A stretch of DNA of 64,000 nt. It comes from a virus. Taxonomy: Duplodnaviria > Caudoviricetes. The stretch spans positions 224,001-288,000 of IMG/VR virus record IMGVR_UViG_3300027804_000001. The stretch is one strand, 5' to 3'. Below the pieces are notes generated by a model, which did no database searches, was not told the DNA's origin, and saw nothing but the letters and a program-made list of their open reading frames with translations. The position numbers were made by a program, and so were the translations under genes. Below, piece after piece: positions 3,851 through 56,923 of the stretch (position 1 is the first letter of the stretch; each line of letters begins with the position of its first letter).

Positions 3851-4609
3851 CTATAAACCAAATCTTTTTTTTGTGTTATTATAATTTTGTAAAACTTGAG
3901 TTGAGGTTAAAGCTGTGGAATGTACCATAAGTTGAGCCAATGTACCGTTAAAAACCGAACCATAACTATCCGTACCCACCCCATAACTATCAGAATTACA
4001 CGGTCCCCACATTGTACATATAGCACAAACGGGTCCAGTTGTGTTTGTTATTGTTTTAGTTGCATCAAGTGAACCATTTATATACATTTTCATTGAGGTG
4101 GTTGATTCTTTAACCCACACTAAATTTTTCCAACCTCCTGTATTCACCAATGTTGTTCCTAAATATGTTTGCCACGCACCGTCATAATTCCAATATTCCA
4201 TATATCCATTAACAAGTGTATATGCAATGTTTACCGGACCACCACTACAGTGAGATAAGATACCAACCCTTCCTGTAGTGGTAAATTTACACCATATAGA
4301 TACAGTACAAGTATTTCCCAAATTAAAAGAAGAAAATTTACCCCAGTCATTAGTACCATCGAATACAAATTCGTTATTTTTTCGATTTTTATTATGTGTT
4401 GGGGGGCCGGAAGTAGTTGTAGAATATGTACCACCACCAGAATTATATAAGGTTACGTCTCTTCCGTTTCCACTTAAATCTTTCCATGTTGACCCCGACC
4501 CTGAATATGAGAAACCTCTATCGGAGTCTAAAAATAATTCAATATTTGTTAATACTAAATTATTTAAGTTTTTAATTGAATCAGATTTATTATATGGTCC
4601 TACGTACAT
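3851..4609 (-). CDS. LamG/concanavalin A-like lectin domain virion protein
   Basis: LFLD...SYSGSGSTWKDLSGNG, FVFDGTNDW, MYING, ALTSTQVLQNYN. Confidence 0.8.
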   Translation of the reverse strand: MYVGPYNKSDSIKNLNNLVLTNIELFLDSDRGFSYSGSGSTWKDLSGNGRDVTLYNSGGGTYSTTTSGPPTHNKNRKNNEFVFDGTNDWGKFSSFNLGNTCTVSIWCKFTTTGRVGILSHCSGGPVNIAYTLVNGYMEYWNYDGAWQTYLGTTLVNTGGWKNLVWVKESTTSMKMYINGSLDATKTITNTTGPVCAICTMWGPCNSDSYGVGTDSYGSVFNGTLAQLMVHSTALTSTQVLQNYNNTKKRFGL

Positions 4610-5306: not shown

Positions 5307-5338
5307 TTTATAAATTAAATCTTTTTTTTGTTGCATTA
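5307..5338. repeat. 32-bp exact direct repeat, copy 2
   Basis: Identical to 4612-4643; encodes the last codons of a LamG gene. Confidence 0.9.
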
Positions 5339-6009
5339 AAAATTTCACCTACTTGTGTTGATGTTAATGCTCTGTTATACATTAAAACTTTCCCAACTTT
5401 ACCATTTACATAGTACGCATTGATTCCAATATCACCACCGATAGACAAAGCACCTGTGTTATAATAATTTCCACCAGATGGTGTTGTGGTTGCAGTCTCA
5501 TCATAATTGTTTCTTATAATTGTTTGTGTATTATCCGTTCTATTTAAAATTGCAGTAAACATTGCCCACGTATTAAAAGTGTAACCGATAAAACCTGTAT
5601 CTGTTCTACTACTTGCATCGTTACCTATCATAAATCTAACACCACTTGGATTGTTAGCACCAATATAATAACCATTAGAACCACCCGACCTTTTTGCAAT
5701 CCATAAATCCCAACCATCTCCAGCAATTGAAGGGTCTGAATTTACCCAACATATTATTGTAAACGACCCACTATTTGGATTTATAGTTGAACTATTTGTA
5801 ATTGAAATATAATCATCTACACCATCAAATGAAAAAACACCACCATTAGAATTATTAAAGGTTGCACCGTTTGTTAATGTCCCGTTATTACCATTTTTAG
5901 ATATATCATAAACATTATTTCCACTACCGATATAGGATCTATATGACCCAGCATCAATAGATAATACTAATCCGTTTCTTGTAAAATTAGGCCCTCTAAA
6001 AATTCCCAT
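5308..6009 (-). CDS. LamG-like lectin domain virion protein (paralog 3)
   Basis: NGLVLSIDAG, FSFDGVDDYI, MYNRALTSTQV. Confidence 0.85.
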   Translation of the reverse strand: MGIFRGPNFTRNGLVLSIDAGSYRSYIGSGNNVYDISKNGNNGTLTNGATFNNSNGGVFSFDGVDDYISITNSSTINPNSGSFTIICWVNSDPSIAGDGWDLWIAKRSGGSNGYYIGANNPSGVRFMIGNDASSRTDTGFIGYTFNTWAMFTAILNRTDNTQTIIRNNYDETATTTPSGGNYYNTGALSIGGDIGINAYYVNGKVGKVLMYNRALTSTQVGEIFNATKKRFNL

Positions 6010-13253: not shown

Positions 13254-15482
13254 TTATAAAAATGTCGTCATTGACTTGAATGTCCAATTCGCACTTGCGT
13301 TTACTTTCAATTCAACATGACCTTCATTTGAAACCGTTACATCAAAAGATGCATCACTTGTATCTCCAATATCTGCCGTTGTTGTTTCATTAAAATTTAC
13401 ACTATTATTATTCCACACCGCAACAACTATACCCGCTCTCGCATTTGAATTATCATAAATTGTATAATTGTAAAACGCTGACGTGTATGAACCCGTTAAT
13501 GTTGACACTACAGTATTAGAACCTGGTGAAACATTTGACAATGAATTTTTTAGTTGTGCGTTGGTAACATCAATACTACCTGTAACAATTAATGATCCTG
13601 ATATGGTTGTATCATTACCTATTGTTACTATAGTTCCTGTATCAACAATAGATGAGTTTGTAACACCTGTTGCCGATTCAAATTTGACAACAGTATTTAC
13701 ATTACCATTAATTGAAACTGATGTTCCACTTGTTCCTGAAGTACCCCCACTTCCACTAGTTCCAGATGTTCCACTAGAACCTGATGTACCCGAAGTTCCA
13801 GATGATCCACTACTACCGCTAGTACCACTTGTGCCTGATGTTCCTGAAGTTCCTGCTGAACCTGAAGTACCACTACTACCACTTGTGCCCGATGTTCCTG
13901 AAGTACCGGCTGAACCCGATGTTCCACTACTACCGCTAGTACCCGAAGAACCAGAACTTCCACTTGTTCCCGAAGTACCAGAACTTCCACTTGTTCCCGA
14001 AGTACCGGCTGAACCTGATGTTCCACTACTACCAGATGAACCACTACTACCACTTGTACCAGCAGTGCCACTACTACCACTTGTACCGGCAGTACCACTA
14101 CTACCACTAGTACCTGATGAACCACCACCACCTTCACCGAGTGTTGCAACTACAATACCCGCAATTGGTTGTGAAAATGTAATTGTTGCATTGTATAAAT
14201 CAACCGCTAAAATCTCTTGAGGTATAACTTGGTAACCATATTCATCAAATACTTGAAATACGGGATATCTTGCACCTAAATCATGATTAAAATACCACAC
14301 GTCTGACGGTGTTGTAACCGTCATTGATTCATAAGCACCTACTGTTGTACTACCTGAAGAACCCGAACTACCTGATGTTCCACTAGTTCCTGAAGTACCA
14401 CTACTTCCTGAACTACCTGAAGTACCTGAGGTTCCACTAGTTCCCGATGTACCACTAGTACCGGCAGTACCACTACTACCACTTGTACCCGAAGTACCGG
14501 ATGAACCATTACCACCAATCGTTGCAATTACTGTACCTGCTGTTGGTAATGCAAAATAAACATCTAAATTATTTGCATCTAATACTTTAATTTCAGTTGG
14601 GATGATGACCCTATCACTGTTATCAAAAACATTAATTGCTGGATATTTGTAATCTAAATTGTGATTAAAAGACCATGTTGTTTGTTGTGAACTCACAACA
14701 AGTGTTCTTGTCATACCCGAAACAGGGTATGCAGAATCAACATAATTTACTAAAGAGGCCGATAATGCCGATACATTGAATGTTACTTCTTTAATGTAAC
14801 CGTTATCATTTGTATCAACCATTGATGTGGTGATTTCTAAACCACCTTCACCGATAAATTCAACAACATCTGAACCTGTTGCTCTAACTAAATCCTGACC
14901 TTCAACAAATATATCTCTAAAGTGTGAACCAATAGAAACAAATGCGGTACCATCAAAAGATTCACTAACATTTAATCCCGTACTATCGTCAAATTGTAAT
15001 TTGGTAAATTGTTTATCATATGTATTACCATCAACATCAGAACCTGAAATATGAAATGGTACATTTGTTAAACCTAAACCACTACCTGTAAATTCTGTTG
15101 CAGTAATTGAACCTGTTACAGATAAATTTACATTAACTTGTAAACCATCTTCATCAATAGATGCGGTCGCATTACCACTTGCAATTTGAGATAAGTTTAA
15201 TCCTGTGATACCACTTGCCGGAATATTATAAAGACCTTGTCCATCACCTATGAATGAACCCGTAAAAAATGATGCTGTTACATTATCTGTTAGATAAATT
15301 GAACCTGTATTAACCGTGTTTGTTGCAACTAATTCTTGTATTGAAGGACCTAACGCACCTGAAACCGCAAAAAATACTTTACCGTCAGTAGTATTAATTG
15401 ATAATTCCCCTAGTTGTAGATTAGCGTTGGTCGGTTTCCTACCCGATACAGCGCTCCTACGTAGCTTTACTATTTGTGCCAT
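13254..15482 (-). CDS. tail fibre protein with tropism-determinant-like N-terminus and Gly-Ser/Thr-Ser tracts
   Basis: 742 aa; MAQIVKLRRS...P....LQLGELSINTTDGKVF head-attachment-type N-terminus; two W.FNH.L..YP modules. Confidence 0.75.
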   Translation of the reverse strand: MAQIVKLRRSAVSGRKPTNANLQLGELSINTTDGKVFFAVSGALGPSIQELVATNTVNTGSIYLTDNVTASFFTGSFIGDGQGLYNIPASGITGLNLSQIASGNATASIDEDGLQVNVNLSVTGSITATEFTGSGLGLTNVPFHISGSDVDGNTYDKQFTKLQFDDSTGLNVSESFDGTAFVSIGSHFRDIFVEGQDLVRATGSDVVEFIGEGGLEITTSMVDTNDNGYIKEVTFNVSALSASLVNYVDSAYPVSGMTRTLVVSSQQTTWSFNHNLDYKYPAINVFDNSDRVIIPTEIKVLDANNLDVYFALPTAGTVIATIGGNGSSGTSGTSGSSGTAGTSGTSGTSGTSGTSGSSGSSGTSGTSGTSGSSGSSGSTTVGAYESMTVTTPSDVWYFNHDLGARYPVFQVFDEYGYQVIPQEILAVDLYNATITFSQPIAGIVVATLGEGGGGSSGTSGSSGTAGTSGSSGTAGTSGSSGSSGSSGTSGSAGTSGTSGSSGTSGTSGSSGSSGTSGSSGTSGSAGTSGTSGTSGSSGTSGSAGTSGTSGTSGTSGSSGSSGTSGTSGSSGTSGTSGSGGTSGTSGTSVSINGNVNTVVKFESATGVTNSSIVDTGTIVTIGNDTTISGSLIVTGSIDVTNAQLKNSLSNVSPGSNTVVSTLTGSYTSAFYNYTIYDNSNARAGIVVAVWNNNSVNFNETTTADIGDTSDASFDVTVSNEGHVELKVNASANWTFKSMTTFL

Positions 15483-37009: not shown

Positions 37010-37552
37010 CTATTCAGAATAAAGACTTCCTAAATCACTATTCTTCATGTATTTTGCTTTACTAAACTTATCTAAAGATTGATTTATCTTATCGAGTTCT
37101 TTTTTTAATTTTTCGTTTTCTTTTTTAAGTTCATCAATTTCTTTGGTGTCAACAACTTCTTTAATTGTTGGTACTTCTATCTTAACTTCTTTGATTACTT
37201 CTTTTGTTATTATTTGTGTATCTCCCTTAATTTGAACGGGTACCTCTTTAATAACCTCAACAATTTTTTCTACCGGTACTTCTTTAATGACCTCTTTAAT
37301 CACCACTTTCTCAACGGGTACTTCCTTTATTACCTCTACTATTTTTTCTACGGGTACCTCTTTTATTACTTCTTTTTCAATAATTTTTTCTTTGGTTGAT
37401 TTAATAGGGGTATCAGGATATTTTAAAAATGAGAATCCTCTATTGAATGTTTCTTTCGCAAGTTTTTCAACGTCATCAATATTATTTAATTGACAATATT
37501 GTATAAATTCATCATCTAAATTAAGTGTCTTCTTTTTTTTGAAATTACTCAC
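37010..37552 (-). CDS. protein with EVIKEVPVEK (alveolin/articulin-like) repeats and coiled coil
   Basis: About six imperfect EV(I/V)KEVPVEK units; GTG start. Confidence 0.7.
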   Translation of the reverse strand: MSNFKKKKTLNLDDEFIQYCQLNNIDDVEKLAKETFNRGFSFLKYPDTPIKSTKEKIIEKEVIKEVPVEKIVEVIKEVPVEKVVIKEVIKEVPVEKIVEVIKEVPVQIKGDTQIITKEVIKEVKIEVPTIKEVVDTKEIDELKKENEKLKKELDKINQSLDKFSKAKYMKNSDLGSLYSE

Positions 37553-38243
37553 TTTCTGTTTGTTTACTCAAATAATCTCTAATAAGTCTAAGATCCGTCA
37601 TTCTTTCGTTGTGCTTTTCTTCAGTAAAAAAACTAAAGTATGCTATAAAGTTTTTATCGGGATGTGATTCAATTGTTATTTCATCTTGAATAAATTCTCT
37701 TTCATGAAAAATTTGTATATCGTCTTCATATATCGATATATTTAAATCATTACTAATTAACTGAACCCAACTATCACAAGCACCACTATTTGACCATCTA
37801 CCTGTGACATCTATCCATTTTTTAGGGATTATTGGAAATAACATTTGATTGTCTTTTCTACAATAATCTGTTTGATTGGTTACTAACGGATTAACAACTA
37901 CAAATTTATTTTTGTATTTATCCATTACCAAATCATAATCTTTTGATGTCATCATACAATCATCATTCCACAATAGTAAAAACTCACCTGTGGCATCTTT
38001 TGATGTTGCATTAACATATAAATTTAGGTTTCTATAAAAATGTCTCTCAGATACATACAACTTAATAAATGGTTTATCTGTAATGTATTCTTTTGTTTTT
38101 TGAACAGTTTCAACATCGTCATCATCCATTGCAACCAATATTTCTAAATTATTTAAATCTGAACAATTTTCAATTAGGCTGTTTGTAGATTTAACAAACA
38201 AATCATATCTTTTTCTTGTTGGGAATATTATACTTATTTTCAT
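37545..38243 (-). CDS. glycosyltransferase family 2-like protein
   Basis: KISIIFPTRKR, ILVAMDDDD, FLLLWNDD. Confidence 0.8.
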   Translation of the reverse strand: MKISIIFPTRKRYDLFVKSTNSLIENCSDLNNLEILVAMDDDDVETVQKTKEYITDKPFIKLYVSERHFYRNLNLYVNATSKDATGEFLLLWNDDCMMTSKDYDLVMDKYKNKFVVVNPLVTNQTDYCRKDNQMLFPIIPKKWIDVTGRWSNSGACDSWVQLISNDLNISIYEDDIQIFHEREFIQDEITIESHPDKNFIAYFSFFTEEKHNERMTDLRLIRDYLSKQTESE

Positions 38244-43855: not shown

Positions 43856-45145
43856 TTAAGCACTACCTCCTCCTCCAGAACAATTAGTAATATATTGAAC
43901 GTCATCAACACCGCCGAAATCATTTACAAGTATTGCGTAATATGGTGGATTATTTGTATTAAATGTATTATCGGATGAAACGGCGTAATATTGATCACCT
44001 CCCTGCCATACCGTATATTCGGTATCAATATAAACCGTTGTATTTAACATATTTGAAATCGTACTAGAGGTACTATAGAATTGTGCACTTGTTACCTGAT
44101 TCTGATTACAATGACCATTACTTAAAGCCGCAGGATTAGATCGGAAAAATCCATATAAAGGTGGTGTTGGTGTTTGTGTCATCGTTGGCGTTATGGTTGG
44201 TGTTGGTGTTATTGCATTACATTGAACTACGTTATTAATATAACCTGTAGGTCCAATTGTCATTGCATATTTTGTACTGTTAGCCAATACCGCATAATAT
44301 GTTCCGTCTCCAACAAATGTTGTTACACAAAGATTTGAATCGTATGCATAATCACCATTTGCAGGTATTGTATGACCACTTAAATAAAGAGTTACACTAT
44401 TTGTTGCAATTTCAGATTCATACATTGCACAAGGTGCTGCTGTTCCACCAAATGTTGATCCGGTGTGTACTAACATTGAAATTCCTGGTGTTGGTGGCGG
44501 TGGTGGTGGAACAATTACATAATCTTCACATGTACCTGTTACTATTGTACCATCTAGTTTATTAGAACAATCACCTGTTCCTGGATCATTTGCAACATCA
44601 TTAGTATTCCAATAACTTCCCATTGTGTAATAATTTCCACCTGAAGACCAGAATATTTTTCCAACATTTGCCGCTCCACCCTCAATAGGTACGGAATAAC
44701 ATATAGTTGCATCATCACATCTTAATAACTCATACCAATATTGGAAATTTGGTGTAATTGTTGGTGTGACTGTAGGTGTTGGTGTTGGATCTCCCGGTGT
44801 TAATGTTGGTGTTATTGTAAATGTTGGTGTTATTGTAAATGTTGGTGTAATAGTTGGTGTAATAGTGTTAGTTATAGTAGGGGTTGGGGTTGCACCTCCA
44901 CCACCTGTTATAGTGATACATTGAGTTGTTCCTGCACAACTTCCACCATCAACCTTAACAAATAATGAAACAACATTATCAGGAATTCCTGTTATTACTT
45001 TTGGAAATCCGGATACTGCTTGTGAGGTTACTAAACTTGAGCAACCACTACCACAAGACGCACCCGTACAACCAGATATTGATACGGTTTGACCTGTTAT
45101 ATCTGAACCAACTGTTCCTAAATCTACTGTAGCGTTAAATGCCAT
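43856..45145 (-). CDS. Cys-rich virion fibre/decoration protein with Thr-Pro linkers
   Basis: 429 aa; two TP tracts and two related G...YYAV...Y.I...G..V..C domains. Confidence 0.65.
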   Translation of the reverse strand: MAFNATVDLGTVGSDITGQTVSISGCTGASCGSGCSSLVTSQAVSGFPKVITGIPDNVVSLFVKVDGGSCAGTTQCITITGGGGATPTPTITNTITPTITPTFTITPTFTITPTLTPGDPTPTPTVTPTITPNFQYWYELLRCDDATICYSVPIEGGAANVGKIFWSSGGNYYTMGSYWNTNDVANDPGTGDCSNKLDGTIVTGTCEDYVIVPPPPPPTPGISMLVHTGSTFGGTAAPCAMYESEIATNSVTLYLSGHTIPANGDYAYDSNLCVTTFVGDGTYYAVLANSTKYAMTIGPTGYINNVVQCNAITPTPTITPTMTQTPTPPLYGFFRSNPAALSNGHCNQNQVTSAQFYSTSSTISNMLNTTVYIDTEYTVWQGGDQYYAVSSDNTFNTNNPPYYAILVNDFGGVDDVQYITNCSGGGGSA

Positions 45146-45149
45146 ATTC

Positions 45150-45157
45150 TATAAATA
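45150..45157 (-). promoter_or_regulatory. putative late promoter TATTTATA
   Basis: 4 nt upstream of ATG 45145. Confidence 0.6.
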
Positions 45158-45175
45158 TTAATTCTTTTATTTTTA

Positions 45176-46078
45176 TTATACAGAACACATTAATAATGGT
45201 GATAATGGTACTTGAGAGTGTAATGCAACACTAGCTTCTGTTGGAGTTGGGTCCATTAGATATAATTCTTCTGAATTATAGTTAAATCCATTATCTATAA
45301 TTGGGCTTGTATAAATTTCACCTATTACAGATATTCCACAAATTCTAAATTGAAGTGTGTTTCCACTACCTCCTGTCCATCTACCTTTTATCGTGTAAGG
45401 ACAATTTGATACTAATATATCGATATATCCAGATTTTGCAGTTGAAGTTGTTAGTTCATCTAACAAATCACCCTCAACGCCTCCGTTACTTGTTACTAAC
45501 AATTGACCACCTGTTTTATTATTTGTTGACCAATATAATCTTACTGTTGGTTCTCCAGTTGGTGTTATGGTTGGAGTATATGTTGGTGTTATTGTAAATG
45601 TTGGAGTAATAGTTGGGGTTGGTGTTGGAGTCGTGTTAGTTTGTACCGCAGAACCACCACTAAAATTACAAATAGGTGTATGAGTTGGTGTAATCGTTGG
45701 TGTTGGTGTAAGATTTGAAATAGCAGAACCACCACTAAAATTACAAATAGGTGTGTAAGTTGGAGTAACTGTTGGAGTTGGGGTAAAACATTTGGTATAG
45801 AAATCTAATTCATGTATATAAATGTTTTCAATAATATAACTATTGGTTACCGTGTCCAATATTTTAAACCAATATTGTTTTCCGTATGGGTTTGGGTCTA
45901 CTTCTACATCAAAATCAATTGTGATTGAGGATGTTCCACCAGCAAAAACACTACCATATTGGGCACCCCAAGTTGGATTTTCTTGTTCAGATACCGAACC
46001 CGGTGTTCTACCGTTTTGATAGAATAATTTAAAATTATTTGGTGAAACTATATTTTTTATCTCAATTACTAGACCCAT
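45176..46078 (-). CDS. virion fibre/decoration protein with Thr-Pro linkers
   Basis: 300 aa; TP tracts and a duplicated PICNFSGGSA. Confidence 0.65.
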   Translation of the reverse strand: MGLVIEIKNIVSPNNFKLFYQNGRTPGSVSEQENPTWGAQYGSVFAGGTSSITIDFDVEVDPNPYGKQYWFKILDTVTNSYIIENIYIHELDFYTKCFTPTPTVTPTYTPICNFSGGSAISNLTPTPTITPTHTPICNFSGGSAVQTNTTPTPTPTITPTFTITPTYTPTITPTGEPTVRLYWSTNNKTGGQLLVTSNGGVEGDLLDELTTSTAKSGYIDILVSNCPYTIKGRWTGGSGNTLQFRICGISVIGEIYTSPIIDNGFNYNSEELYLMDPTPTEASVALHSQVPLSPLLMCSV

Positions 46079-46083
46079 ACCTA

Positions 46084-46091
46084 TATAAATA
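46084..46091 (-). promoter_or_regulatory. putative late promoter TATTTATA
   Basis: Between terminator and ATG 46078. Confidence 0.6.
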
Positions 46092-46111
46092 CCAATAATA
46101 AAAATTTAAAT

Positions 46112-46136
46112 AAAAAACCCCTTTAAATAAAGGGGT
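46112..46136 (-). terminator. intrinsic terminator
   Basis: ACCCCTTT-ATTT-AAAGGGGT followed by T tract. Confidence 0.8.
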
Positions 46137-46164
46137 CTTTTAATAATTAAAAAATCTTTATTTG

Positions 46165-46704
46165 TTATGGAGCAAAACCACTATTAATTGTGATTGCTAC
46201 AGTATCAGGTGAAGTACTACCAATTGTTGTTGTATAAGTTGTTGCACTTCCAGATGAATTTGGACAAGTAGTTGTATTATCGGCGCCATTCATAACATAA
46301 CTTTGTGCTGTTGAGAAGGTTACTGTGTCCCCCTCCGTTAATCCTGTAATTGCACCTAAATCGGAACATATATTTTCATTAGTATTGTAGAAGTTGAAAT
46401 TTCCACCACCATTTATATTGTATATAAGCATTATTGAACCACCGTTAACATCTTTAGCAAAAACACTCAAGGCTATTGTTGGTTTAGTCCAAGGTTGTGA
46501 GGTGGTACATGTTCCTATACTTGCTACCGTCCCACCTGTTATGTTACTATTTGGAATTGTTACTTCATAACCCGCTTCTAATGTTGCTTTTGCAACACCA
46601 GATTCAATTAATGTTGTAATACCTCCGCTAGTTGTTCCCGAGATGTCAAAAGGTCCGGTATCTGATCCGGCCCCTGAAACTGTGAAAATTACGTTATATG
46701 CCAT
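46165..46704 (-). CDS. two-domain virion protein (stalk-less paralog of the 718 aa fibre)
   Basis: C-terminal Y.INGG...C...G.ITGL..D.VTF.T...Y.M.G...C shared with 46769-48925. Confidence 0.7.
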   Translation of the reverse strand: MAYNVIFTVSGAGSDTGPFDISGTTSGGITTLIESGVAKATLEAGYEVTIPNSNITGGTVASIGTCTTSQPWTKPTIALSVFAKDVNGGSIMLIYNINGGGNFNFYNTNENICSDLGAITGLTEGDTVTFSTAQSYVMNGADNTTTCPNSSGSATTYTTTIGSTSPDTVAITINSGFAP

Positions 46705-46727
46705 TGTTTTTTATTTTTATCTTTTTA

Positions 46728-46735
46728 TATAAATA
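46728..46735 (-). promoter_or_regulatory. putative late promoter TATTTATA
   Basis: Upstream of ATG 46704. Confidence 0.6.
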
Positions 46736-46768
46736 TATCATTATTCAAAACAAATCTGTAGTTTATTT

Positions 46769-48925
46769 TTATGGTATGGCACCCGTGTCAATTCCTAAAT
46801 AGACATAATCATTACCAGAACTTATTCCTATGGTATGTACATAATTAACATTTCCACTAGGTGCGGTACAATTAGAACTAGAACCCGTCATTGAATACCC
46901 AATGTTGGTACCGAATGTAACTTGGTCGGACTGACTTAAACCTGTTATTTGTCCATAATAATCACAATTTCCATTTAATGGTCCATTATAAAAAGTATTA
47001 TATGAACCACCATTTATTTGATAGGTTATTTCAATTGAGTTGTATGAATTATCATAATCCTGTGCATTTACATAAAGTGTAACATAATTTGCAACACTTA
47101 CTATTTCTGTTACACCACTATTTGTAACACAACCATTCGCATCTGTTACCTCAACACAATATCCACCCGCACATAGAGTACCTACTGATTGTGTTGCTGT
47201 TGATTCAGTTACTCCTGTTATTGTTGTCACCAACGTGCCTCCACATGTTGTATATGGTGCTGTTGAGTCGAGATATAATTTATAAGTTTTTGGCCATACA
47301 CCACCAGTTGAACTCATATCAAGAGTACCATTACAACCACCTGTATCATTTGCTGTAATCGTAATTGAAGCTGATTGTGCACTTGGTTGAGTTATTGTAA
47401 CAGAAATTCCTTTTACTGCACCATTACTAGCTTTAACATTAAGGGTATAACCTGTTGCAATTAAACTACTAAATGTCTTAGGTAATGCAAAATAATTTAC
47501 ACCATCCAACGATACCGTATAAGCTCCACCTGAACCACCTGATGCACTATTAACTGTTAATGAACCGTCTGAACCACCATTACATGATACATTTGTTTGT
47601 GTATAACTAGCACTAATCTCAGTATAAGTTGGTGTCACCGTTGGTGTGAACGTCGGTGTTATTGTAAACGTCGGCGTTATTGTTGGTGTAATTGTATAAG
47701 TAGGTGTTATAGTTGGTGTAAACGTAGGCGTTATTGTTGGTGTAATAGTAAACGTAGGTGTAATAGTTGGTGTAATAGTTCTAGTTGGTGTAATGGTAAA
47801 TGTTGGCGTTATTGTAAACGTCGGTGTTATTGTAAACGTAGGTGTTATAGTTGGTGTAATTGTTTTAGTTGGAGTAATAGTTGGGGTAGGAGTTGGTGCA
47901 ACATAAGTTGTACTTACTGTGAAGTTACAAGCCGGTGTTGGTGTTGGTGTAATAGTAAATGTTGGTGTAATTGTTGGTGTAACAGTTCTAGTTGGTGTTA
48001 ATGTAAACGTTGGTGTAATTGTATAAGTCGGAGTTATAGTTGGTGTAATAGTTGGTGTAAATGTAGGTGTGATAGTTGGTGTTATAGTTTGACTTACTGT
48101 TTGAGTAGGTGTAATAGTATAAGTTGGTGTAATAGTATAAGTTGGTGTAATAGTCTGACTTACAGTTTGTGTAGGTGTAATAGTATAAGTTGGTGTAATA
48201 GTTGGAGTAGGTGTAGGTGCCACATAAGCAGTGCTCACTGTGAAATCACAATCCGGAGTTAACGTTGGTGTAACTGTATAAGTTGGAGTAATAGTTGGTG
48301 TTATAGTATAAGTTGGTGTAATAGTAAATGTCGGTGTGATAGTAAACGTTGGGGTTACTGTTACTGTTGGAGTGATTGTAAGTGTAGGTGTAATAGTTGG
48401 TGATAACGTTTGTGTTGGTGTAATAGTATAAGTTGGTGTTATGGTATATGTAGGAGTAACTGTCGGTGTAGGTGTTGGTGCAACATAAGTTGCATTAACA
48501 ACAAAGTCACAAGCCGGAGTTAACGTTGGTGTTATTGTATATGTTGGTGTTAAAGTTTGTGTGAACGTCGGTGTTATTGTAAACGTCGGCGTTATTGTAT
48601 AAGTCGGTGTTATTGTTGTTGTAGGTGTAATTGTGTATGTTGGTGTAACTGTTAACGTTGGTGTTAAAGTTGGTGTTGGGGTTGGTGCGTAGAATGTCTC
48701 ATTAGTAAAACATGATTCATTGTAAAGAATCACATTTACTGTACTATCAGGTACATAAACATCAACACCCGGATTTGTTGTTAAGTCGTTATAAGTAATT
48801 CCTGTTGCATTATCATTTGTACTAACTCTTGTGGCATAATTAGATGGATTTACATCATCATAGTAAACCGAATATGGTCCTGGTGATGTTCCTCCTGTTA
48901 TTAATATGTGAAAATATCTTGCCAT
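46769..48925 (-). CDS. fibre protein: Thr-Pro stalk, two SprB-like repeats and a tip domain
   Basis: 718 aa; [15 protein letters not shown]...SGG...YTVSLDG and [16 protein letters not shown]. Confidence 0.75.
47625..48685 (-). repeat. T-[IVL]-T-P-T-[YF] hexapeptide coding repeat (18-bp degenerate units)
   Basis: Continuous in the 718 aa ORF, punctuated by three CxFxVxxxYVAP modules. Confidence 0.9.
48468..48562. repeat. 95-bp exact repeat, copy 1
   Basis: Identical to 51252-51346 in the neighbouring gene. Confidence 0.85.
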
Positions 48926-48937
48926 TTATATTAATTA

Positions 48938-51900
48938 TTATACCGTATTAAAACCTAATTCAACTTGATAGTAAGAATTCACATGATATAACGCATCATT
49001 TGTTGTAAACTCAATTCTCAATGTATGTACAGAGTTCGCCGCTAATAAGTATGGTGACGGTACTGTAAATGTTTTTATCACAGGTCCCATTGCACATCCC
49101 TGATTTAAATCTTGTGATGTTGCTCTGGCGATTTCTGTTCCATTTAATTTAAATTTAATGTTCTCAAAATTAGTATCTTGTAACTCCGCAAGACCACTAA
49201 AGTCTAAAGACATATTCGTATTTTGTGGTCCAACTGTTATAGTTGCTTCCGCCCAACCAATTTGTGTTTGATTACAAGTTCCATTAGGACAATTTGACGA
49301 ATTCGAAACATTAAATCTAACTGTTTGATTCAAGTTTGAAATTGCCCATCCAGCATTAATTCTATTTTGTGCTGAAACTGTTGGGTCAACATATAAACAT
49401 TGTGAAAAACCTGTAACATTAGTATATGTCGTCCATGTTAATCCTGAAACAGGTAGTGGTGTTGGTGTTATTGTCATTGTTGGTGTAATAGTTGGTGTTG
49501 TTGTAACTGAAGGTACATACTCACTAAATGATGCCGCAAATGAACAATCAATTGTTGGAGTAATTGTTAATGTCGGTGTAATAGTTGGTGATACTGTTAC
49601 TGTTGGTGTAATAGTAAATGTTGGTGTTATTGTAAACGTTGGTGTAATTGTAGGAGTAGGAGTAGGTGCTACGTATGTCGTACTAACCGTGAAATCACAA
49701 GCCGGAGTTAATGTTGGAGTAATTGTATAAGTTGGGGTAATAGTTGGTGAAACTGTTACTGTTGGCGTAATAGTATATGTTGGAGTAATTGTTAATGTCG
49801 GTGTGATTGTTAAAGTTGGTGTAATCGTCTGACTTACAGTTTGTGTAGGTGTAATAGTAAATGTTGGTGTAATTGTATAGGTTGGTGTAATAGTCGGTGT
49901 AATTGTATAAGTCGGAGTTATTGTATACGTTGGAGTTACGGTTGGTGTTGGGGTTGGTGCAACATAGGTTGTATCAACATTGAAATCACACGCTGGTGTC
50001 AATGTAGGTGTAATTGTATAAGTTGGTGTAATAGTTGGTGTAACCGTTAATGTTGGTGTAATTGTTTGAGTTGGTGTAATAGTAAATGTTGGCGTTATTG
50101 TTAACGTCGGAGTAATAGTTGGTGATAATGTTTGTGTAGGTGTTATTGTATACGTTGGAGTAATTGTATAAGTCGGAGTTATAGTTGGTGTAATAGTAAA
50201 CGTAGGTGTAATAGTATAAGTTGGAGTAACTGTCGGTGTAGGTGTTGGTGCTACATATGTAGTAGTAACCGTAAATTCACAAGCCGGTGTTAGAGTTGGT
50301 GTAACTGTAAATGTTGGGGTTATAGTTGGTGTAACAGTTAATGTAGGTGTAATTGTATAAGTTGGGGTAATAGTTGGTGTTGGTGTTATGGGTAAAATAA
50401 CAACATTAACACAATCACATTGTGGTGTAACTGAATTTACAGTAAATCCGCTAACACATTCACCAGGTAATAAACCCGCACCTATATTAAATCCGTGTGT
50501 ATGGTCGTTGTATGCAATTGTTTCTGTTCCATTAAATACGGTACCCAAGTCACCATACGCAGTACCCGAAACAATATAATCACAAATTGCATTTGCATTA
50601 TCTGTTAAATCAGGATTATTGAATAATTGGATGTCAAAGTTTGAACATCCTAATAATCTAACTCTTAAGTATTGTGTTACAAATGGATCACATGTTTGTG
50701 TTGGTGTGATTGTATAAGTTGGGGTTACTGTAAACGTTGGTGTAACGGTTTGTGTTGGTGTAATTGTATATGTTGGAGTTACAGTTGGAGTAGGAGTTGG
50801 TGCAACATAGGTTGTGTCAACATTAAAATCACAAGCCGGTGTAAAAGTTGGTGTAATAGTCGGCGTAATTGTGAATGTTGGCGTTATAGTATAAGTTGGT
50901 GTTATAGTATAAGTTGGTGTTATAGTTGGTGTAATAGTATAAGTTGGTGTTATAGTATAAGTTGGAGTTACTGTTTCTGTTGGTGTAATAGTAAACGTTG
51001 GCGTTATTGTTAACGTCGGAGTAATAGTGGGAGTTATACTTTGAGTTGGGGTAGGTGTAGGTGCAACATAAGTTGTACTAACTATAAATTGACAATCTGG
51101 TGTCAATGTTGGTGTGATAGTATAAGTTGGTGTTATAGTTGGTGTAAATGTTGGTGTTATTGTAAATGTAGGTGTAACAGTTTGTGTTGGTGTTATTGTT
51201 AACGTCGGAGTTAAAGTTGGGGTAATTGTATGAGTAGGTGTGACTGTTGGGGTAGGTGTTGGTGCAACATAAGTTGCATTAACAACAAAGTCACAAGCCG
51301 GAGTTAACGTTGGTGTTATTGTATATGTTGGTGTTAAAGTTTGTGTTATAGTAGGTGTTATTGTATAAGTTGGTGTAATAGTAAATGTTGGAGTAATGGT
51401 AAATGTAGGTGTTACTGTTGGTGTTGGTGTGGCCGCAACATAAGTTGTATCAACAATAAACTCACAATCAGGAGTTAACGTAGGTGTTATTGTATATGTT
51501 GGTGTTAAAGTTTGTGTGTAAGTTGGTGTAATTGTTGGTGTAACAGTGAATGTTGGTGTGATAGTTGGTGTAATAGTAAACGTAGGTGTTGGAGTTGGTG
51601 TCGGTGTCTCAGGACAATAAATTAATTTCCAACAATTTCCATCACATGGTGCGTATTCATATCCACTTGGGCAAGTATAACCAGATGAAAGATAATTACC
51701 ATTTATATCTTTAATAACAGGAATTGTTTGACCAATAAAATCTGAAGATGAGAATATTACATTTAAATCATTTATTGATGTTGCACCAGTTAATTGAGGT
51801 AATGTGTTATCATAAATTTCACAACCAAATGACGCAGGGTTTGTTTGATTACCTGTTAAATTATATCCATATAAACCAATAATGTGATCACCTGCCGTTA

Positions 51901-54900
51901 ATGTTATTGGGTAAACGTGCCATGTTCTAAATTTCGATAATTCATTAAGACCTGAATTAGCAAACGTATCTAAAATAACATTACCATCAATCTCCAATCT
52001 AAATTCATTATCAGCACCAATACCGATATAGTAATCACCACCTGTTATACCTGTGATACAAACATTAAATCCTAACCAAGTTTGTAATGGATTATCCACG
52101 TTGTCATTTACACCATCATTTGCCCACAAACCTGTTCTATTTAATGGTCCATTACCGGGGTTGAATATATTATAACCAGTTGTATTTTTCCATAAATCTG
52201 CGGTGTTTAGATGTATCTCTTCTGTCCCTGTTCCGTTTATATTCCAACCTAATTGATAAACAGTTGTTCCACTCATACTATATTCAAAGTATGTTCTTCC
52301 ACTTGCGGTGTAAGGTGTTGTTGGTGCGGTCGCGGAAACAATATCAATTGCCGTACAATAACCTCCATCTATTGGTGTCCATGTATATCCTGAAGGACAA
52401 TCCACACAAGGAATTGCTGTAGGTGTAATAGTATTTGTTGGTGTTATCGTTAACGTTGGTGTTACTGTTTCTGTTGGTGTAATTGTATAAGTCGGTGTAA
52501 TAGTTTGAGTATACGTCGGAGTAATAGTTGGTGTTATCGTTAACGTTGGTGTTATAGTTTGTGTTAGTGTAAACGTCGGCGTTATTGTAAACGTCGGTGT
52601 AATAGTTGTTGTTGGTGTTATTGTATATGTTGGTGTAACAGTTAACGTAGGAGTTACTGTTGGAGTAATTGTAGGAGTTGGTGTTGGTGTTGGGTATGCA
52701 GAATTACAATCTCGATAAGGAGTTATTTCACAATCAACATAACCAGTTGTGTCTCTTTCACTTGATGTTTGTGTGATATCTTGACACAATCCACCATCAT
52801 AATATTGAATAATATATTCATCTAATGTTTTGAACTCGTCATAAACATGTTGTAATAATATTTGGTGATTTGAGTTACCATTAAATGCAATTAAATTTGT
52901 TGGTGTTGTTCCCGATAAATTTAAATTAAAATATAAATCAGATTCACAATACTCTAAATTAACTGAAATAACTTCAATAAGTCTACCACTTTCAGTGATT
53001 AAATAATCACCATGTTCATAATAATCATTTGAATAATCACAACATGGTTCCTCTTGTATTGGTTTTATTTGTAAATGTTCAGGAAATCTTTCAGTAAAGA
53101 AAAATCTTTTTAAATCTATTACTTCATCTGTAGACTCGTCAACATACTTTCTCGTGTAAACTTTAACTTTTGTTGTTTGTAAAATTTCAAACACCTCAAC
53201 ATCTCCATCCTTAGTTGTACCTGTTATGTGATATTTTTTAATTGTTCCCAAACAATCTTTTGCGGTTACTTTTTTGGGTGTGTAATCAAAAACAAATGTG
53301 AAATCATCATTTGTTAAACCATCTACTAATGATTGATTTGATAATTCACTACAATCATTAAATGTTGCCGAAAGAATTGTATCACCTGAAACAATATCTT
53401 TTACATATGTTTTAGTATAACTTGTTAATGTTGTTTGACTACCACCTGTATATTTTAAAACATACGAATTACCACCCAATCCATAATTGAAAGAATTTCT
53501 ATATTGGATTTTAGGTACTAATTTGTAAAGAACTTCATCATCAACCGGTGATGGTGTTAAACCACTATAACCAATCCATTGAATGTTTATACCTTCAAAT
53601 TTTACTTTGGTGTCGCAGTTGGCTGCGTCGGTAAATAAGAAATCAATTTCATCTGTTTCTTTAACATTCGACACCACCCAAACACATTCGTATCCACCAG
53701 GAATATCCATAGTAGAACCATGAACCGTATAACCTGTTGTTTCATTTACACCATATTCACAATTTCTATATACAAATAACGGCCAATTCTTAACTCTATT
53801 TTTCTGAATTATATTGTTAGTATCTCCCGTGATTTTTATTTTTAAATCACCATTTAAAATACATTCAGGTCCATTAGGATAATTTATATCATCACCTGCA
53901 AATAGTCTATTTGGGTCTTCGTCGTCATCCGGGCAATCAAAAGAAAAATCAAGTTCTAATGTACAATCAGCAGGTGTTGTTGCACCGTTTGAAGCAACAA
54001 ATCTGTAATCAAGATATTCTTCAACAGAACAATCATTTGGTCCGTACTTTATAGATGTGAATGTAACTTGTTCGATACCATTTTCATCTGTAAAAAATGA
54101 ATAGGATATTTTTGGTTTTGGAACTTGGGTACATGTACTGCTACTTGTTGCTGCTGTATATGGTGCATATGTATCAATACAACCCGGAGTGTTCATTGTG
54201 TCTTCCGAATTGATTGAATCGATTAAACCAATTAACGCATCAACCCATAAATCTTTAATTGCATTAACATCAGGTTCCAAATAATCTTTATAATCACATA
54301 TTAATGGTAAATGTGTTGATGAGGATGTCGTTCCTGTACAATTATCAATTGGAAATGAGTTAAATAATTTTGCGCTTACTCCTGGTATTGATGTGTTGCC
54401 ACTCACAATAACTTCAAATCCTGATTCAGGCCCACCATATTGAATACCATCAATTTCTATTAATGGATAATAAGTAACGCCAGTTGCATTAATTAAACCT
54501 CTAAAATAATTTTCATGATGACTACCTAATAATTTTTCAAAATCTTCTTCGATTGCCTCTTCAAAACTTGGATAAAGGCTTTCTGTAAAAGTCTTTGGTT
54601 GACAACCGTATCTATATTTGTATTTTGGTCTACCGAAAATATTATTTTCAATTAAATTACCACCAGTCCATAACGTTGTTGATGGTATAACTTGATCTAA
54701 TACTTGAGTCCAATATGGACTCATCTTATTGATAAATTCGTTTAAATCCGGTATAGTATATGGTACAAAATCAGTTGAACTTACATAATCTTGATAAATG
54801 TCTTCAAGTTTTATGTAATTCTTTTTGTATTTGATAATGTGTGAGTTTTTAATTTGTGTACTCAACATTTTATCAACATATTCCGCAAATGTAACACCTG

Positions 54901-56923
54901 TTTGTGGTTCTAATGTTGCACTACCAAATGATATCTCTAACTCTCTTGACTTTCTCCATATATCATAGTTGATAGCATTTGCAGAAGAAAGATACACTTC
55001 AATATTTTTTCTATTGAATATAAATGAAGAATATTCGTCAGCTATTTGTCTTTGTCTGTTATCTAATTTACTAACAATTTCGTAACCAGTGTCTAAACCG
55101 GGTAAACTTCTATAGATATCAAAATAATCTTCACCATAAGTAAAAGATTTATTTTTTGTTTTAATTGTTTTGGTTCTTCCCGTTAAATTAGACTTATCAC
55201 CATCAATTATGTCTATTGATCTGTGATCTAATGTTATATCATACCAACCCGCACCTTTTTGGAAAAACGTGTTAGATGATTCGTCAAACGCCGTTTTTGG
55301 TATTTTAGTACCTTCAACAATTGGGTACGTTTCGGATGTGAAAGTTGTTGATGCCTTAGTTGAAGATATTGAATAGGTATAACCACTCGGAATAAATTCT
55401 GCAACATTGTATGTTTTTGTTCCTGCAATAACATCATAGATATCACTATCTAAATCAAATGATTTTGGTAATGAGGTTATTTGATAAACAAATTCATTAA
55501 TTTTAATCATTGGTTCAGGTGCACCTAAGAACTTTAAGAAAAATTCTATTGATGAACGTGTACCTTTTGATTTATATATGTGAGATAGATTAACTAATAA
55601 TCTTCTATAAAATTCGTTTTCTGCGTCAACAACGTTTTTACCAATTGTTAGACCGATATATTGTGTGTCTTGTCTTGTGTATAATAAATCTTCTAATTTA
55701 TTTTCATCAAATAAATTTACAGTAGATAAACCTAAGGTGTTTGATAAATTTTTTAATAATATATCGGGTAAGTTATTAATACCATCATAACTTACATTTC
55801 TCATGTAAGCAATGTTTTCAATATATTTTTTTACTTTATCGAAACTATGTCCATATAATTGGAAAATCGCTTCAGCCTTCTTGTCATCAGTATCAAACTC
55901 AAATAACTGTGGAGAAGACATAAATCTAACAAATAAATTAGATTTATAATCATCTATTTCGTCAGCCAAATTTGATAATTGTTCGATATATAAATCATAA
56001 TCAATACCAACAATTTTAACGTTCCAATTATCTTTTGAAAGTGGCCATGTTACTTCAACATCACTAAGTACTGTGTTTGAACTATCTATACTATCTTTTG
56101 GTACACTAAATGTTGCGGTGTATTTTGGATTTGTATCTCTATCAATTAAACATTGTTCTAATTCATCTAAATTAGAAAAGAAGTCTTCAACCAAACCATT
56201 ATTTGGTCTTATTAATATGTTCTCACTATAATTTGTGTTAGTTCCAAATGGTTTACCCTTAACCTTTAATACGATTTTATAATCGGTACTAGGTTCGGTA
56301 TAATTTATAATGTCATAAGTGATACCACTTATTTCTATAACATACTTTGTATATGAAGAATAAAAATTTCTTAATGTGTTTGTGGTGTTTGGGTCGACTT
56401 GACTATTTGGTGTTACAAATATTACATCGAGTGGATTGTATAATCTACCAAAGTCAACCTCGAATTGTGTGGTGTTTAAATTAATGTCATAAACAACATT
56501 ATCTACAGTATAATCTGATGACCTTACTGAACTGTTTTTATCAATTAAAACACCAGCCGGAAACTTTTCAATTATATTTCCTAATGTTGCACCAATTCTA
56601 CTTTTTAATGAACCAAATAATGATTTACCCGCATCATTTTTTGATGACCTAAATTTTACCTCTTTATTTTCATTTGAAGTACCATTTGGGTTATTTTGGT
56701 CATTTGACTTATATTTTTCTTCTTTTAAATCGTCTAAGGTTAGAAAATCAGAAAATTGTCCAGAACGAAATGTTTTCACATCTCTTTCAGGGATAGATCT
56801 GTCAATAGCGAAGTTAGTATTAGTCAATTGACTAGTACCATCGGTAATTTGTCTACCGACTAAACTATCACTAAACGTTTCAGACCCATTCGCCGCCTGA
56901 CTTGGAACTTTTCTTCTTGCCAT
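48938..56923 (-). CDS. giant baseplate-wedge-like protein with Cys-rich domains, PA14-like domain and Thr-Pro stalks
   Basis: 2661 aa; LPDILL...LSNTLG and IYKSKGTRSSIEFFLKFLG wedge-type motif; ADNEFRLEIDG...LTAGDHII; long TP tracts. Confidence 0.65.
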   Translation of the reverse strand: MARRKVPSQAANGSETFSDSLVGRQITDGTSQLTNTNFAIDRSIPERDVKTFRSGQFSDFLTLDDLKEEKYKSNDQNNPNGTSNENKEVKFRSSKNDAGKSLFGSLKSRIGATLGNIIEKFPAGVLIDKNSSVRSSDYTVDNVVYDINLNTTQFEVDFGRLYNPLDVIFVTPNSQVDPNTTNTLRNFYSSYTKYVIEISGITYDIINYTEPSTDYKIVLKVKGKPFGTNTNYSENILIRPNNGLVEDFFSNLDELEQCLIDRDTNPKYTATFSVPKDSIDSSNTVLSDVEVTWPLSKDNWNVKIVGIDYDLYIEQLSNLADEIDDYKSNLFVRFMSSPQLFEFDTDDKKAEAIFQLYGHSFDKVKKYIENIAYMRNVSYDGINNLPDILLKNLSNTLGLSTVNLFDENKLEDLLYTRQDTQYIGLTIGKNVVDAENEFYRRLLVNLSHIYKSKGTRSSIEFFLKFLGAPEPMIKINEFVYQITSLPKSFDLDSDIYDVIAGTKTYNVAEFIPSGYTYSISSTKASTTFTSETYPIVEGTKIPKTAFDESSNTFFQKGAGWYDITLDHRSIDIIDGDKSNLTGRTKTIKTKNKSFTYGEDYFDIYRSLPGLDTGYEIVSKLDNRQRQIADEYSSFIFNRKNIEVYLSSANAINYDIWRKSRELEISFGSATLEPQTGVTFAEYVDKMLSTQIKNSHIIKYKKNYIKLEDIYQDYVSSTDFVPYTIPDLNEFINKMSPYWTQVLDQVIPSTTLWTGGNLIENNIFGRPKYKYRYGCQPKTFTESLYPSFEEAIEEDFEKLLGSHHENYFRGLINATGVTYYPLIEIDGIQYGGPESGFEVIVSGNTSIPGVSAKLFNSFPIDNCTGTTSSSTHLPLICDYKDYLEPDVNAIKDLWVDALIGLIDSINSEDTMNTPGCIDTYAPYTAATSSSTCTQVPKPKISYSFFTDENGIEQVTFTSIKYGPNDCSVEEYLDYRFVASNGATTPADCTLELDFSFDCPDDDEDPNRLFAGDDINYPNGPECILNGDLKIKITGDTNNIIQKNRVKNWPLFVYRNCEYGVNETTGYTVHGSTMDIPGGYECVWVVSNVKETDEIDFLFTDAANCDTKVKFEGINIQWIGYSGLTPSPVDDEVLYKLVPKIQYRNSFNYGLGGNSYVLKYTGGSQTTLTSYTKTYVKDIVSGDTILSATFNDCSELSNQSLVDGLTNDDFTFVFDYTPKKVTAKDCLGTIKKYHITGTTKDGDVEVFEILQTTKVKVYTRKYVDESTDEVIDLKRFFFTERFPEHLQIKPIQEEPCCDYSNDYYEHGDYLITESGRLIEVISVNLEYCESDLYFNLNLSGTTPTNLIAFNGNSNHQILLQHVYDEFKTLDEYIIQYYDGGLCQDITQTSSERDTTGYVDCEITPYRDCNSAYPTPTPTPTITPTVTPTLTVTPTYTITPTTTITPTFTITPTFTLTQTITPTLTITPTITPTYTQTITPTYTITPTETVTPTLTITPTNTITPTAIPCVDCPSGYTWTPIDGGYCTAIDIVSATAPTTPYTASGRTYFEYSMSGTTVYQLGWNINGTGTEEIHLNTADLWKNTTGYNIFNPGNGPLNRTGLWANDGVNDNVDNPLQTWLGFNVCITGITGGDYYIGIGADNEFRLEIDGNVILDTFANSGLNELSKFRTWHVYPITLTAGDHIIGLYGYNLTGNQTNPASFGCEIYDNTLPQLTGATSINDLNVIFSSSDFIGQTIPVIKDINGNYLSSGYTCPSGYEYAPCDGNCWKLIYCPETPTPTPTPTFTITPTITPTFTVTPTITPTYTQTLTPTYTITPTLTPDCEFIVDTTYVAATPTPTVTPTFTITPTFTITPTYTITPTITQTLTPTYTITPTLTPACDFVVNATYVAPTPTPTVTPTHTITPTLTPTLTITPTQTVTPTFTITPTFTPTITPTYTITPTLTPDCQFIVSTTYVAPTPTPTQSITPTITPTLTITPTFTITPTETVTPTYTITPTYTITPTITPTYTITPTYTITPTFTITPTITPTFTPACDFNVDTTYVAPTPTPTVTPTYTITPTQTVTPTFTVTPTYTITPTQTCDPFVTQYLRVRLLGCSNFDIQLFNNPDLTDNANAICDYIVSGTAYGDLGTVFNGTETIAYNDHTHGFNIGAGLLPGECVSGFTVNSVTPQCDCVNVVILPITPTPTITPTYTITPTLTVTPTITPTFTVTPTLTPACEFTVTTTYVAPTPTPTVTPTYTITPTFTITPTITPTYTITPTYTITPTQTLSPTITPTLTITPTFTITPTQTITPTLTVTPTITPTYTITPTLTPACDFNVDTTYVAPTPTPTVTPTYTITPTYTITPTITPTYTITPTFTITPTQTVSQTITPTLTITPTLTITPTYTITPTVTVSPTITPTYTITPTLTPACDFTVSTTYVAPTPTPTITPTFTITPTFTITPTVTVSPTITPTLTITPTIDCSFAASFSEYVPSVTTTPTITPTMTITPTPLPVSGLTWTTYTNVTGFSQCLYVDPTVSAQNRINAGWAISNLNQTVRFNVSNSSNCPNGTCNQTQIGWAEATITVGPQNTNMSLDFSGLAELQDTNFENIKFKLNGTEIARATSQDLNQGCAMGPVIKTFTVPSPYLLAANSVHTLRIEFTTNDALYHVNSYYQVELGFNTV
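49460..52695 (-). repeat. interrupted T-[IVL]-T-P-T-[YF] coding repeat region
   Basis: Tracts at about 52420-52695, 50690-51605 and 49460-50390. Confidence 0.9.
51252..51346. repeat. 95-bp exact repeat, copy 2
   Basis: Identical to 48468-48562. Confidence 0.85.

Follow-up and report, generated by a model that had tools for sequence, protein, structure and literature searches.

What structure do protein stalks adopt when threonine occupies every second residue over long stretches, and what is the role of the single cysteines that interrupt them? This question is raised by a cluster of five adjacent minus-strand genes, coding for proteins of 2661, 718, 179, 300 and 429 amino acids, in a 64,000-nucleotide stretch of viral DNA (Duplodnaviria; Caudoviricetes) corresponding to positions 224,001 to 288,000 of the IMG/VR record IMGVR_UViG_3300027804_000001. 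The whole stretch is called here the window, and positions are counted from its first letter. A first-pass annotation, made from the letters of the DNA, had pointed to Thr-alternating stalks punctuated by single-Cys modules at 44165-52695. At one end of this range lies the last tract of the 429-residue protein gene (44162-44209), and at the other end the first tract of the 2661-residue protein gene, which ends at 52690. The observation is confirmed, and the interpretation attached to it, a rigid and possibly disulfide-stapled stalk that is glycosylated or binds ice, is partly supported. The explanation that we put forward tentatively, from sequence comparisons, is that these are modular, adhesin-type fibre proteins of a freshwater jumbo phage, combining an anchor, an ordered extended stalk and lectin- or Ig-like heads, with the single-Cys modules acting as points where chains pair.

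Tracts were listed as runs of strict [T/S]-x alternation (Thr, rarely Ser) of 12-92 residues. The 2661-residue protein contains 15 of them, amounting to 604 residues, and the 718-residue protein contains seven, amounting to 316 residues. Short tracts with a weaker alternation are found in the 300- and 429-residue proteins. The longest unbroken alternations reach 92 and 94 residues, whereas in 1000 composition-matched shuffles of the same regions the mean longest run was 12.5-13.5 residues, with maxima of 22 and 34. The alternation is thus far above chance. The repeat unit is not the fixed hexapeptide that had been proposed. TPTx (four residues) and TPTxT[IV] (six residues) are mixed freely, together with occasional units of 8-12 residues. 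Pro-Pro distances within the tracts are 4, 6 and occasionally 8-12 residues, and only the two-residue alternation is strict. The x positions of the window tracts are 41% Pro and 52-53% Ile, Val, Leu, Phe, Tyr or Met, with 1-3% charged residues. Such a composition is made of residues favouring the β or polyproline II conformations.

The ratio of non-synonymous to synonymous differences (pN/pS) was computed on intervals of equal length, taken from the window and from its relatives. At Thr positions, pS is 0.55-0.59 and pN 0.01-0.06, giving a pN/pS of 0.02-0.10. The ratio is 0.27-0.55 at the in-between positions and 0.32-0.59 in the nodes described below. Such low values at Thr positions, with near-saturated synonymous sites, show that the Thr alternation is kept by strong, long-standing purifying selection. 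For the same two reasons, recent DNA slippage is ruled out as the source of the pattern. Both the alternation and the single-Cys modules of the first-pass annotation are genuine and subject to selection. The mean DNA identity of adjacent hexamer units is 72%, and the 2661-residue protein gene contains no exact 40-mer repeat, which indicates that the pattern is maintained at the protein level. Tandem-repeat analysis with Tandem Repeats Finder (TRF) returned many overlapping periods of 12-84 nucleotides, matching at just 60-80%.

The tracts are interrupted by short modules, or nodes, with a single cysteine. The canonical node, TP-[A/D]-C-[D/E/Q/N]-F-x-V-x-[T/A]-[T/A]-Y-V-A-P-TPTPT, occurs seven times in the 2661-residue protein and three times in the 718-residue protein, and each protein carries one degenerate copy in addition. 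These ten canonical and two degenerate copies agree with the first-pass count of about 11 CxFxVxxxYV modules in the two proteins. The stalk region of the 2661-residue protein (residues 1412-2489; 49457-52690, minus strand as for all features of the cluster) comprises its 15 tracts, eight nodes and two inserted globular domains. Its canonical nodes are those of C1820 (CEFIVDTTYVAA; 51431-51466), C1877 (51260-51295), C1944 (51059-51094), C2031 (50798-50833), C2215 (50246-50281), C2312 (49955-49990) and C2409 (49664-49699). The degenerate node C2460 (CSFAASFSEYVP; 49511-49546) is shared with the related loci L013 and L017. In the 718-residue protein, the stalk (residues 82-436; 47618-48682) is associated with three canonical nodes, C139, C226 and C333 (48476-48511, 48215-48250 and 47894-47929, respectively), and one degenerate node, C72 (48677-48712).

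Nodes are the sole Pro-free stretches of the stalk. When the residues are numbered from the cysteine, one face is hydrophobic (C1, F3, V/I5, A/T/V7, Y9, A11) and the opposite face is polar, which is the pattern of an amphipathic β-strand. The node carries on the alternation of the preceding tract and ends in a one-residue phase slip at A-P. The 300-residue protein has two copies of a different node, TP-I-C-N-F-S-G-G-S-A (TPICNFSGGSA). Both copies lie within a 75-nucleotide tandem repeat (45648-45786, 89% matches), which was duplicated much more recently than the rest of the stalk repeats. Further versions are found in relatives, including C-x-F-G-[VI]-x-V-x-V and C-x-F-D-V-D-V, and the window-type node is restricted to 7 IMG/VR contigs and 18 JGI metagenome stretches, which form a narrow clade. 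In relatives that were fetched without reference to nodes, exactly one Cys was present in 181 of the 193 distinct Pro-free hydrophobic interruptions between tracts, at the same position in 151 of these 181. It is a rule throughout the family that the strand begins with one Cys. Complete proteins contain 7, 12, 12, 15, 16, 19, 24, 28 or 48 cysteines in total. As Cys and node counts are both odd and even, purely intrachain pairing, whether of the cysteines at large or of node with node, is ruled out as a general scheme.

The distances between nodes obey a further rule. In a first survey, 52 of 61 pure-tract Cys-Cys intervals were equal to 7 modulo 10. When all loci were considered, 52 of the 64 distinct intervals of node family A belonged to this class (27 + 10n residues), and each ten-residue value from 27 to 127 was occupied. 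The out-of-class intervals (35, 41, 43, 55, 69, 73, 91, 95, 151 and 181 residues) were each represented by two sequences at most. After clustering at 75% identity, 21 of 33 family-A clusters were in class (Bonferroni-corrected P = 3e-7), the expected share being one fifth because parity already forces odd lengths. Node family B (C-x-F-G-[VI]-x-V-x-V), seen in related phages (loci L032, L044, L047, L056 and L087-L110, proteins P0125-P0158), gave two series in ten-residue steps, 35-105 and 31-61, and its top class holds 20 of 50 clusters (P = 5e-3). Node family C (C-x-F-D-V-D-V, spacing 23-59) showed no ten-residue rule.

Intervals of the same length differ in the order of their four- and six-residue units. 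The autocorrelation of Pro peaks at 6, 10-12, 16, 22 and 28 residues and is low at 20 and 30, and Pro occupies every even phase of ten-residue frames. A decamer repeat as the cause of the spacing rule is ruled out by the varied unit order and by the low autocorrelation at 20 and 30. A β-hairpin or decamer meander was rejected as well, since hairpins predict steps of 4 and Pro is without periodicity at 10, 20 and 30. In the out-of-class interval of 91 residues, neighbouring units resemble each other most closely (90% DNA identity), which is what a recent 18-nucleotide slip would produce. We read these data as pointing to selection on the total tract length modulo 10.

Exchange between genes has also left its mark on the stalks. 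A stretch of 95 nucleotides is perfectly identical between the 718-residue protein gene (48468-48562) and the 2661-residue protein gene (51252-51346), centred on node C1877, while the second-longest exact word common to the two genes is 38 nucleotides. The nodes are the longest conserved DNA words. The identity indicates that the node has recently undergone gene conversion or recombination. Its position, centred on a node amid diverged repeats, suggests that nodes also act as crossover points for swaps of stalk cassettes.

These features might be accounted for by flexible, probably O-glycosylated Pro/Thr linkers without defined structure, the nodes being sticky or redox elements or recombination segments and the ten-residue steps resulting from 30-nucleotide repeat mutation. 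We consider this unlikely, though by no means negligible. The recent exchange at the node would be in keeping with it, and so would the 30-nucleotide periods that TRF finds among others, the short intervals built of decamer-like TPTx+TPTxTI blocks, the low confidence returned by all structure predictors and the use of the same tract type to join domains in many bacterial secreted enzymes. However, TRF gives periods of 12, 18, 24, 36, 48 and 66 nucleotides as well, and long intervals, which consist mostly of hexamers, still total to one length class. Orthologous intervals of the window and of L017 have lengths of 107 and 117 residues and interiors that cannot be aligned, yet both are in class. 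Even between node families that have diverged, the single Cys is conserved at the level of the protein and fixed in position. Finally, x positions that are 52% hydrophobic and have a near-zero charge are atypical of disorder.

If the proteins are modular fibres as proposed above, the anchor (a core of about 960 residues, or a plug of 81 residues) would presumably fix the chain to the particle, and the distal heads (SprB Ig-like repeats, possibly a lectin-like domain, and other β domains) would presumably bind surfaces. The tracts in between would form an ordered extended spacer, with Thr on one side and Pro, Ile/Val/Leu and Phe/Tyr on the other. If fully extended, they would span about 190-200 nm in the 2661-residue protein and 100-105 nm in the 718-residue protein. 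The node would be an amphipathic β-strand of 10-12 residues, by which sister chains or stacked segments could pair through β-sheet hydrogen bonds. A thiol-based link may form at the nodes after release from the cell, and disulfides would be plausible in a released particle. The tract itself would be a helix-like rod, torsionally stiff and returning to the same orientation after every ten residues, with nodes placed whole ten-residue steps apart. Such a geometry could be obtained, for instance, if the dipeptide chemistry is combined with a strand twisted at about 2.5 residues per turn; nodes would then have to face the same way in order to pair with sister chains. A random coil has no reason for ten-residue steps, and the steps suggest an ordered rod. 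To this extent a regular stalk that is not a random coil, and with it the rigid stalk of the first-pass annotation, receives indirect support from the node spacing. Glycosylation of the stalk is conceivable; glycosyltransferase-family genes are present in the window (145-996, 2414-3058 and 37545-38243), with no link to the stalk proteins.

Several points weigh against this explanation. The AlphaFold2 (AF2) model of residues 1760-2100 of the 2661-residue protein has a predicted local distance difference test score (pLDDT) of 36, and the ESM Atlas model of the 718-residue protein a pLDDT of 0.49. The AF2 model of residues 1478-1672 of P0005, the closest database relative (anchor 80% identical), folds as a β-solenoid with one rung per node (pLDDT 56, predicted template modelling score 0.50). 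In a lone extended chain, the hydrophobic residues, about one quarter of the tract, would be exposed to the solvent unless chains associate or glycans cover them. Membership of the virion is deduced from gene neighbourhood and domain types, and the anchor gave no sequence or profile match in Pfam, PHROG, NCBIfam or the PDB. As for the spacing rule, tract lengths derive from short-read metagenome assemblies, and the interval counts are phylogenetically non-independent. Contigs from four public runs match pieces of the window identically, and none spans a whole tract. In these contigs the repeats are fragmented, length polymorphism is unreadable and many apparent joints are cross-matches between repeats. 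A mutational bias towards 30-nucleotide changes may contribute to the rule. A three-copy multimer prediction of a node-57 residues-node segment, made with an 11-row alignment, gave a score of 0.01 and a fold pLDDT below 50, and speaks neither for nor against oligomers.

The P0005 model suggests another arrangement, which we regard as quite unlikely. The stalks could be compact β-solenoid or cross-β rods in which node and Thr strands stack as rungs, with hydrophobic residues inside and Thr ladders outside. Such a rod would be some ten times shorter than the contour length. The stretch modelled in P0005 contains six nodes 25-41 residues apart. It superimposes on SufB/SufD-type β-helices with Z 10.8-12.6 and a root-mean-square deviation of about 3 Å over 164-172 of 195 residues. 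A Foldseek search with the model returned no significant match; every weak row was a β-solenoid. The in/out alternation of Thr and hydrophobic residues would suit a solenoid strand, and the shortest family-A spacing, 27 residues, is a typical rung length. On the other hand, the P0005 model is of low confidence and concerns a different node type with short tracts, family C, which lacks the ten-residue rule, and the window's own region has a pLDDT of 36. Pro at every even phase, without periodicity at 10, 20 and 30, is ill suited to fixed corners. Solenoids normally shift phase at arcs, and a slip-free alternation over 90 residues would be unusual for them.

A bolder form of the ordered, extended stalk would be a previously undescribed fibrous architecture: a stiff super-helical rod, perhaps made of several chains, with a ten-residue (about 3.3 nm) repeat and clamped at the nodes, providing phage adhesins with a tunable ruler. 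We hold this to be improbable as it stands. It would imply that stalk length evolves only in ten-residue quanta.

Low-complexity Thr/Pro regions are usually dismissed as floppy. The spacing rule and the fixed Cys speak for a defined structure in one class of them at least. Should this be true, a testable model becomes available for the very long, length-adjustable appendages of giant phages, and the similar tracts of thousands of bacterial secreted enzymes merit a second look. If it is false and the rule is an artefact of mutation, what remains is a mucin-like stalk of the ordinary kind.

The remaining parts of the proteins are also modular. The 2661-residue fibre protein (48938-56923; open reading frame and translation) consists of a conserved anchor, stalks, inserted domains and a C-terminal head. 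Its N-terminal anchor region (residues 1-1411; 52691-56923) has a conserved core, residues 1 to about 960; at least 500 database proteins share it, with an identity of 48-80% and on contigs of up to 351 kb. Some of these relatives are just 958-990 residues long, which indicates that the remainder of the 2661-residue protein is a variable extension. A weak match to PF21427 (T4 gp7 domain V; 4.9e-4) was obtained with one of 12 anchor relatives and none with the window protein itself. Of 124 proteins (120 anchor-family hits and the four window proteins), 55 contain at least 40 residues of Thr-alternating tract. Apart from phrog_15511 (unknown function) and SprB, searches of Pfam, PHROGs and NCBIfam with the whole proteins, the anchor and six neighbour genes yielded nothing but leads below threshold.

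Two domains are inserted in the stalk of the 2661-residue protein. The first (residues 1504-1772; 51608-52414) weakly resembles PA14 or polysaccharide-binding domains and is a lead, with an E-value of 0.064 for PF07691, below the cut-off, and of 0.071 for PDB entry 8j3y; a homologue with 32% identity is found in locus L060. The second (residues 2078-2179; 50387-50692) contains six Cys and lies within a 184-residue node interval. It is kept at about 60% identity, in the same place, in L013, L071 and L079, and a Pfam scan gave no family match. The C-terminal head (residues 2490-2661; 48941-49456) shares 84% identity with the C-terminal end of the homologue in L017 and gave weak Pfam leads only.

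The 718-residue fibre protein (46769-48925) is made of the 81-residue N-terminal plug, the 355-residue stalk and a head with SprB repeats. The plug is found with 38-90% identity in 20 translated open reading frames from 15 related loci. The head scores 30.1 bits with the SprB repeat PF13573, above the cut-off of 28 (E 3.8e-7), and the nearest ESM Atlas clusters of the protein carry SprB. Such repeats are a hint that the host may belong to Bacteroidota. The stalk-less 179-residue protein (46165-46704) matches the last head domain of the 718-residue protein (46772-47080) through its C-terminal domain, with 38% identity over 107 residues (E 5e-10), and is by sequence a stalk-less paralogue of that domain. 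Besides its distinct single-Cys node, the 300-residue protein (45176-46078) has short TP tracts at 45554-45790. In the 429-residue protein (43856-45145), short TP tracts (44750-44890 and 44162-44209) lie between Cys-containing domains.

The G+C content is about 30% across the window, and the minus strand holds the large majority of open reading frames of at least 100 residues. Phage functions include an SbcCD-like nuclease, an exonuclease, a primase and RuvC, and genes for ClpP, a sigma factor, NusG, a Dam methylase and an amidase lie within the window. Metagenomes of 16 studies, sampled from freshwater and rivers, contain DNA of the window; neither DNA nor protein matches to it were found in the GenBank phage collection. 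Plus-strand open reading frames of 80-134 residues lie opposite the stalks (47597-48001, 50672-51013 and 52180-52422). They are by-products of the repeat composition, being the antisense of ACN/CCN codons, and the GC skew at these frames reaches +0.37 to +0.42. Downstream of the stalk cluster, at a distance of about 28 kb, are giant fibre genes of another kind, Pro-free and collagen-like, (G-S/T-S)n (8082-13166, 13254-15482 and 6009-7958), the last one bearing a T4-type long-tail-fibre tip. They are adjoined by two Laminin_G_3 lectin-like genes (3851-4609 and 5308-6009), with glycosyltransferase and methyltransferase genes (145-3058) beside them.

How do these stalks compare with known systems? 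A search with the stalk of the 718-residue protein retrieved 2591 database proteins at E<=1e-3, counted among the 8000 candidates scored. All of the 120 matches listed contain Thr/Ser-alternating runs, slip-free over up to 374 residues, with x positions that are 12-51% hydrophobic. Matches include GH8/GH9 cellulases with CBM3, a subtilase of the type IX secretion system (T9SS), FGE-domain proteins and many phage proteins. The tracts can thus no longer be called far more regular than ordinary Pro/Thr linkers, as had been suggested. Multidomain enzymes secreted by bacteria often contain Thr/Ser-alternating linkers, which are up to 374 residues long (database proteins P0131-P0244). Judged by sequence, the window tracts are the hydrophobic, uncharged extreme of a widespread linker class, of which our literature search found no structural description. 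With Pro/Thr linkers (PF04886, cellulase and T9SS linkers) they share the alphabet, the strict Thr/Ser alternation and the joining of globular domains, and their TPTx/TPTxTI units between globular domains fit the XPTX-type description. Unlike them, the window stalks have nodes, and 52-53% of their x positions are hydrophobic as compared to 12-51%. PF04886 itself was not matched by the window proteins in whole-protein and domain-only Pfam scans, the tracts not being scanned alone, and was precomputed for one relative only. Composition-bias filters may lie behind the absent match.

The possibility that the Thr faces bind ice, raised in the first-pass annotation, is unsupported and extremely improbable. 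Insect and spider antifreeze proteins do bind ice through faces made of TxT, TxTxTxT and longer motifs (PMC13080227), with Thr at alternate strand positions as in the window stalks, and the phage is from freshwater. Flat Thr arrays would even exist if the stalks were solenoids. However, the antifreeze β-solenoids of Tenebrio, spruce budworm, Rhagium and Clubiona present a short motif per coil, in a two-dimensional lattice of 6.4-7.0 Å by 4.6-5.0 Å on a rigid scaffold (PMC13080227), whereas the window runs are continuous over 12-94 residues and contain Pro, and the low-confidence models (pLDDT 36 for the window's stalk, 56 for the solenoid-like P0005) do not establish such a scaffold. Proteins from many habitats, namely cellulases, proteases and T9SS cargo, carry tracts of the same class, and these enzymes are unconnected with ice. 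Close relatives carry TPTN- or TPTQTE-type tracts instead of the hydrophobic pattern, and glycosylated Thr would leave the face covered.

The most familiar analogue is provided by the serine-rich repeat adhesins Fap1 (streptococcal) and GspB of Gram-positive cocci, with about 2000 residues of S(V/I/E) dipeptide repeats (PMC2952246). Microscopy led to a model of the Fap1 stalk as an extended super-helix that repeats every 6.5 nm, projects the binding domains and leaves Ser exposed for O-glycosylation (PMC2952246). In both cases a hydroxyl residue at every second position alternates with aliphatic residues over hundreds of residues, and the stalk projects a globular binding region. The window stalks differ by Thr in place of Ser, by Pro every 4-6 residues, by the single-Cys nodes and by belonging to a phage protein. 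Ten extended residues measure about 3.2-3.4 nm, half the Fap1 repeat, a coincidence that is numerology and serves as a lead only. The serine-rich repeat proteins are an analogue of the window stalks and not their family: the latter are Thr-based, and no signal peptide, LPXTG motif, accessory Sec or GtfA/B system is found in the phage context.

Phage receptor-binding proteins are likewise modular, with a conserved N-terminal anchor, a variable shaft and an exchangeable distal domain. The window proteins resemble them in their conserved anchor and variable distal parts, in paralogues that share heads and in recent exchange of sequence between genes. In contrast to them, the shaft here is not a coiled coil, a triple β-helix or a collagen, but a low-complexity Thr-alternating tract with nodes. 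In our literature searches on Thr-Pro or mucin-like phage fibres, no description of this node-punctuated architecture was found. In gel-forming mucins, long Thr/Pro-rich PTS regions are broken by CysD elements thought to cross-link the chains. CysD elements have about 110 residues and many cysteines, and mucin PTS regions are devoid of the alternation and of hydrophobic residues. The window nodes, with 12 residues and one Cys, are unlike CysD. Overall, the window stalks are a Thr-alternating, node-punctuated variant of mucin-like or Pro/Thr-type stalks. They are distinguished by their ten-residue length quantum and by the robust rule of one Cys per node.

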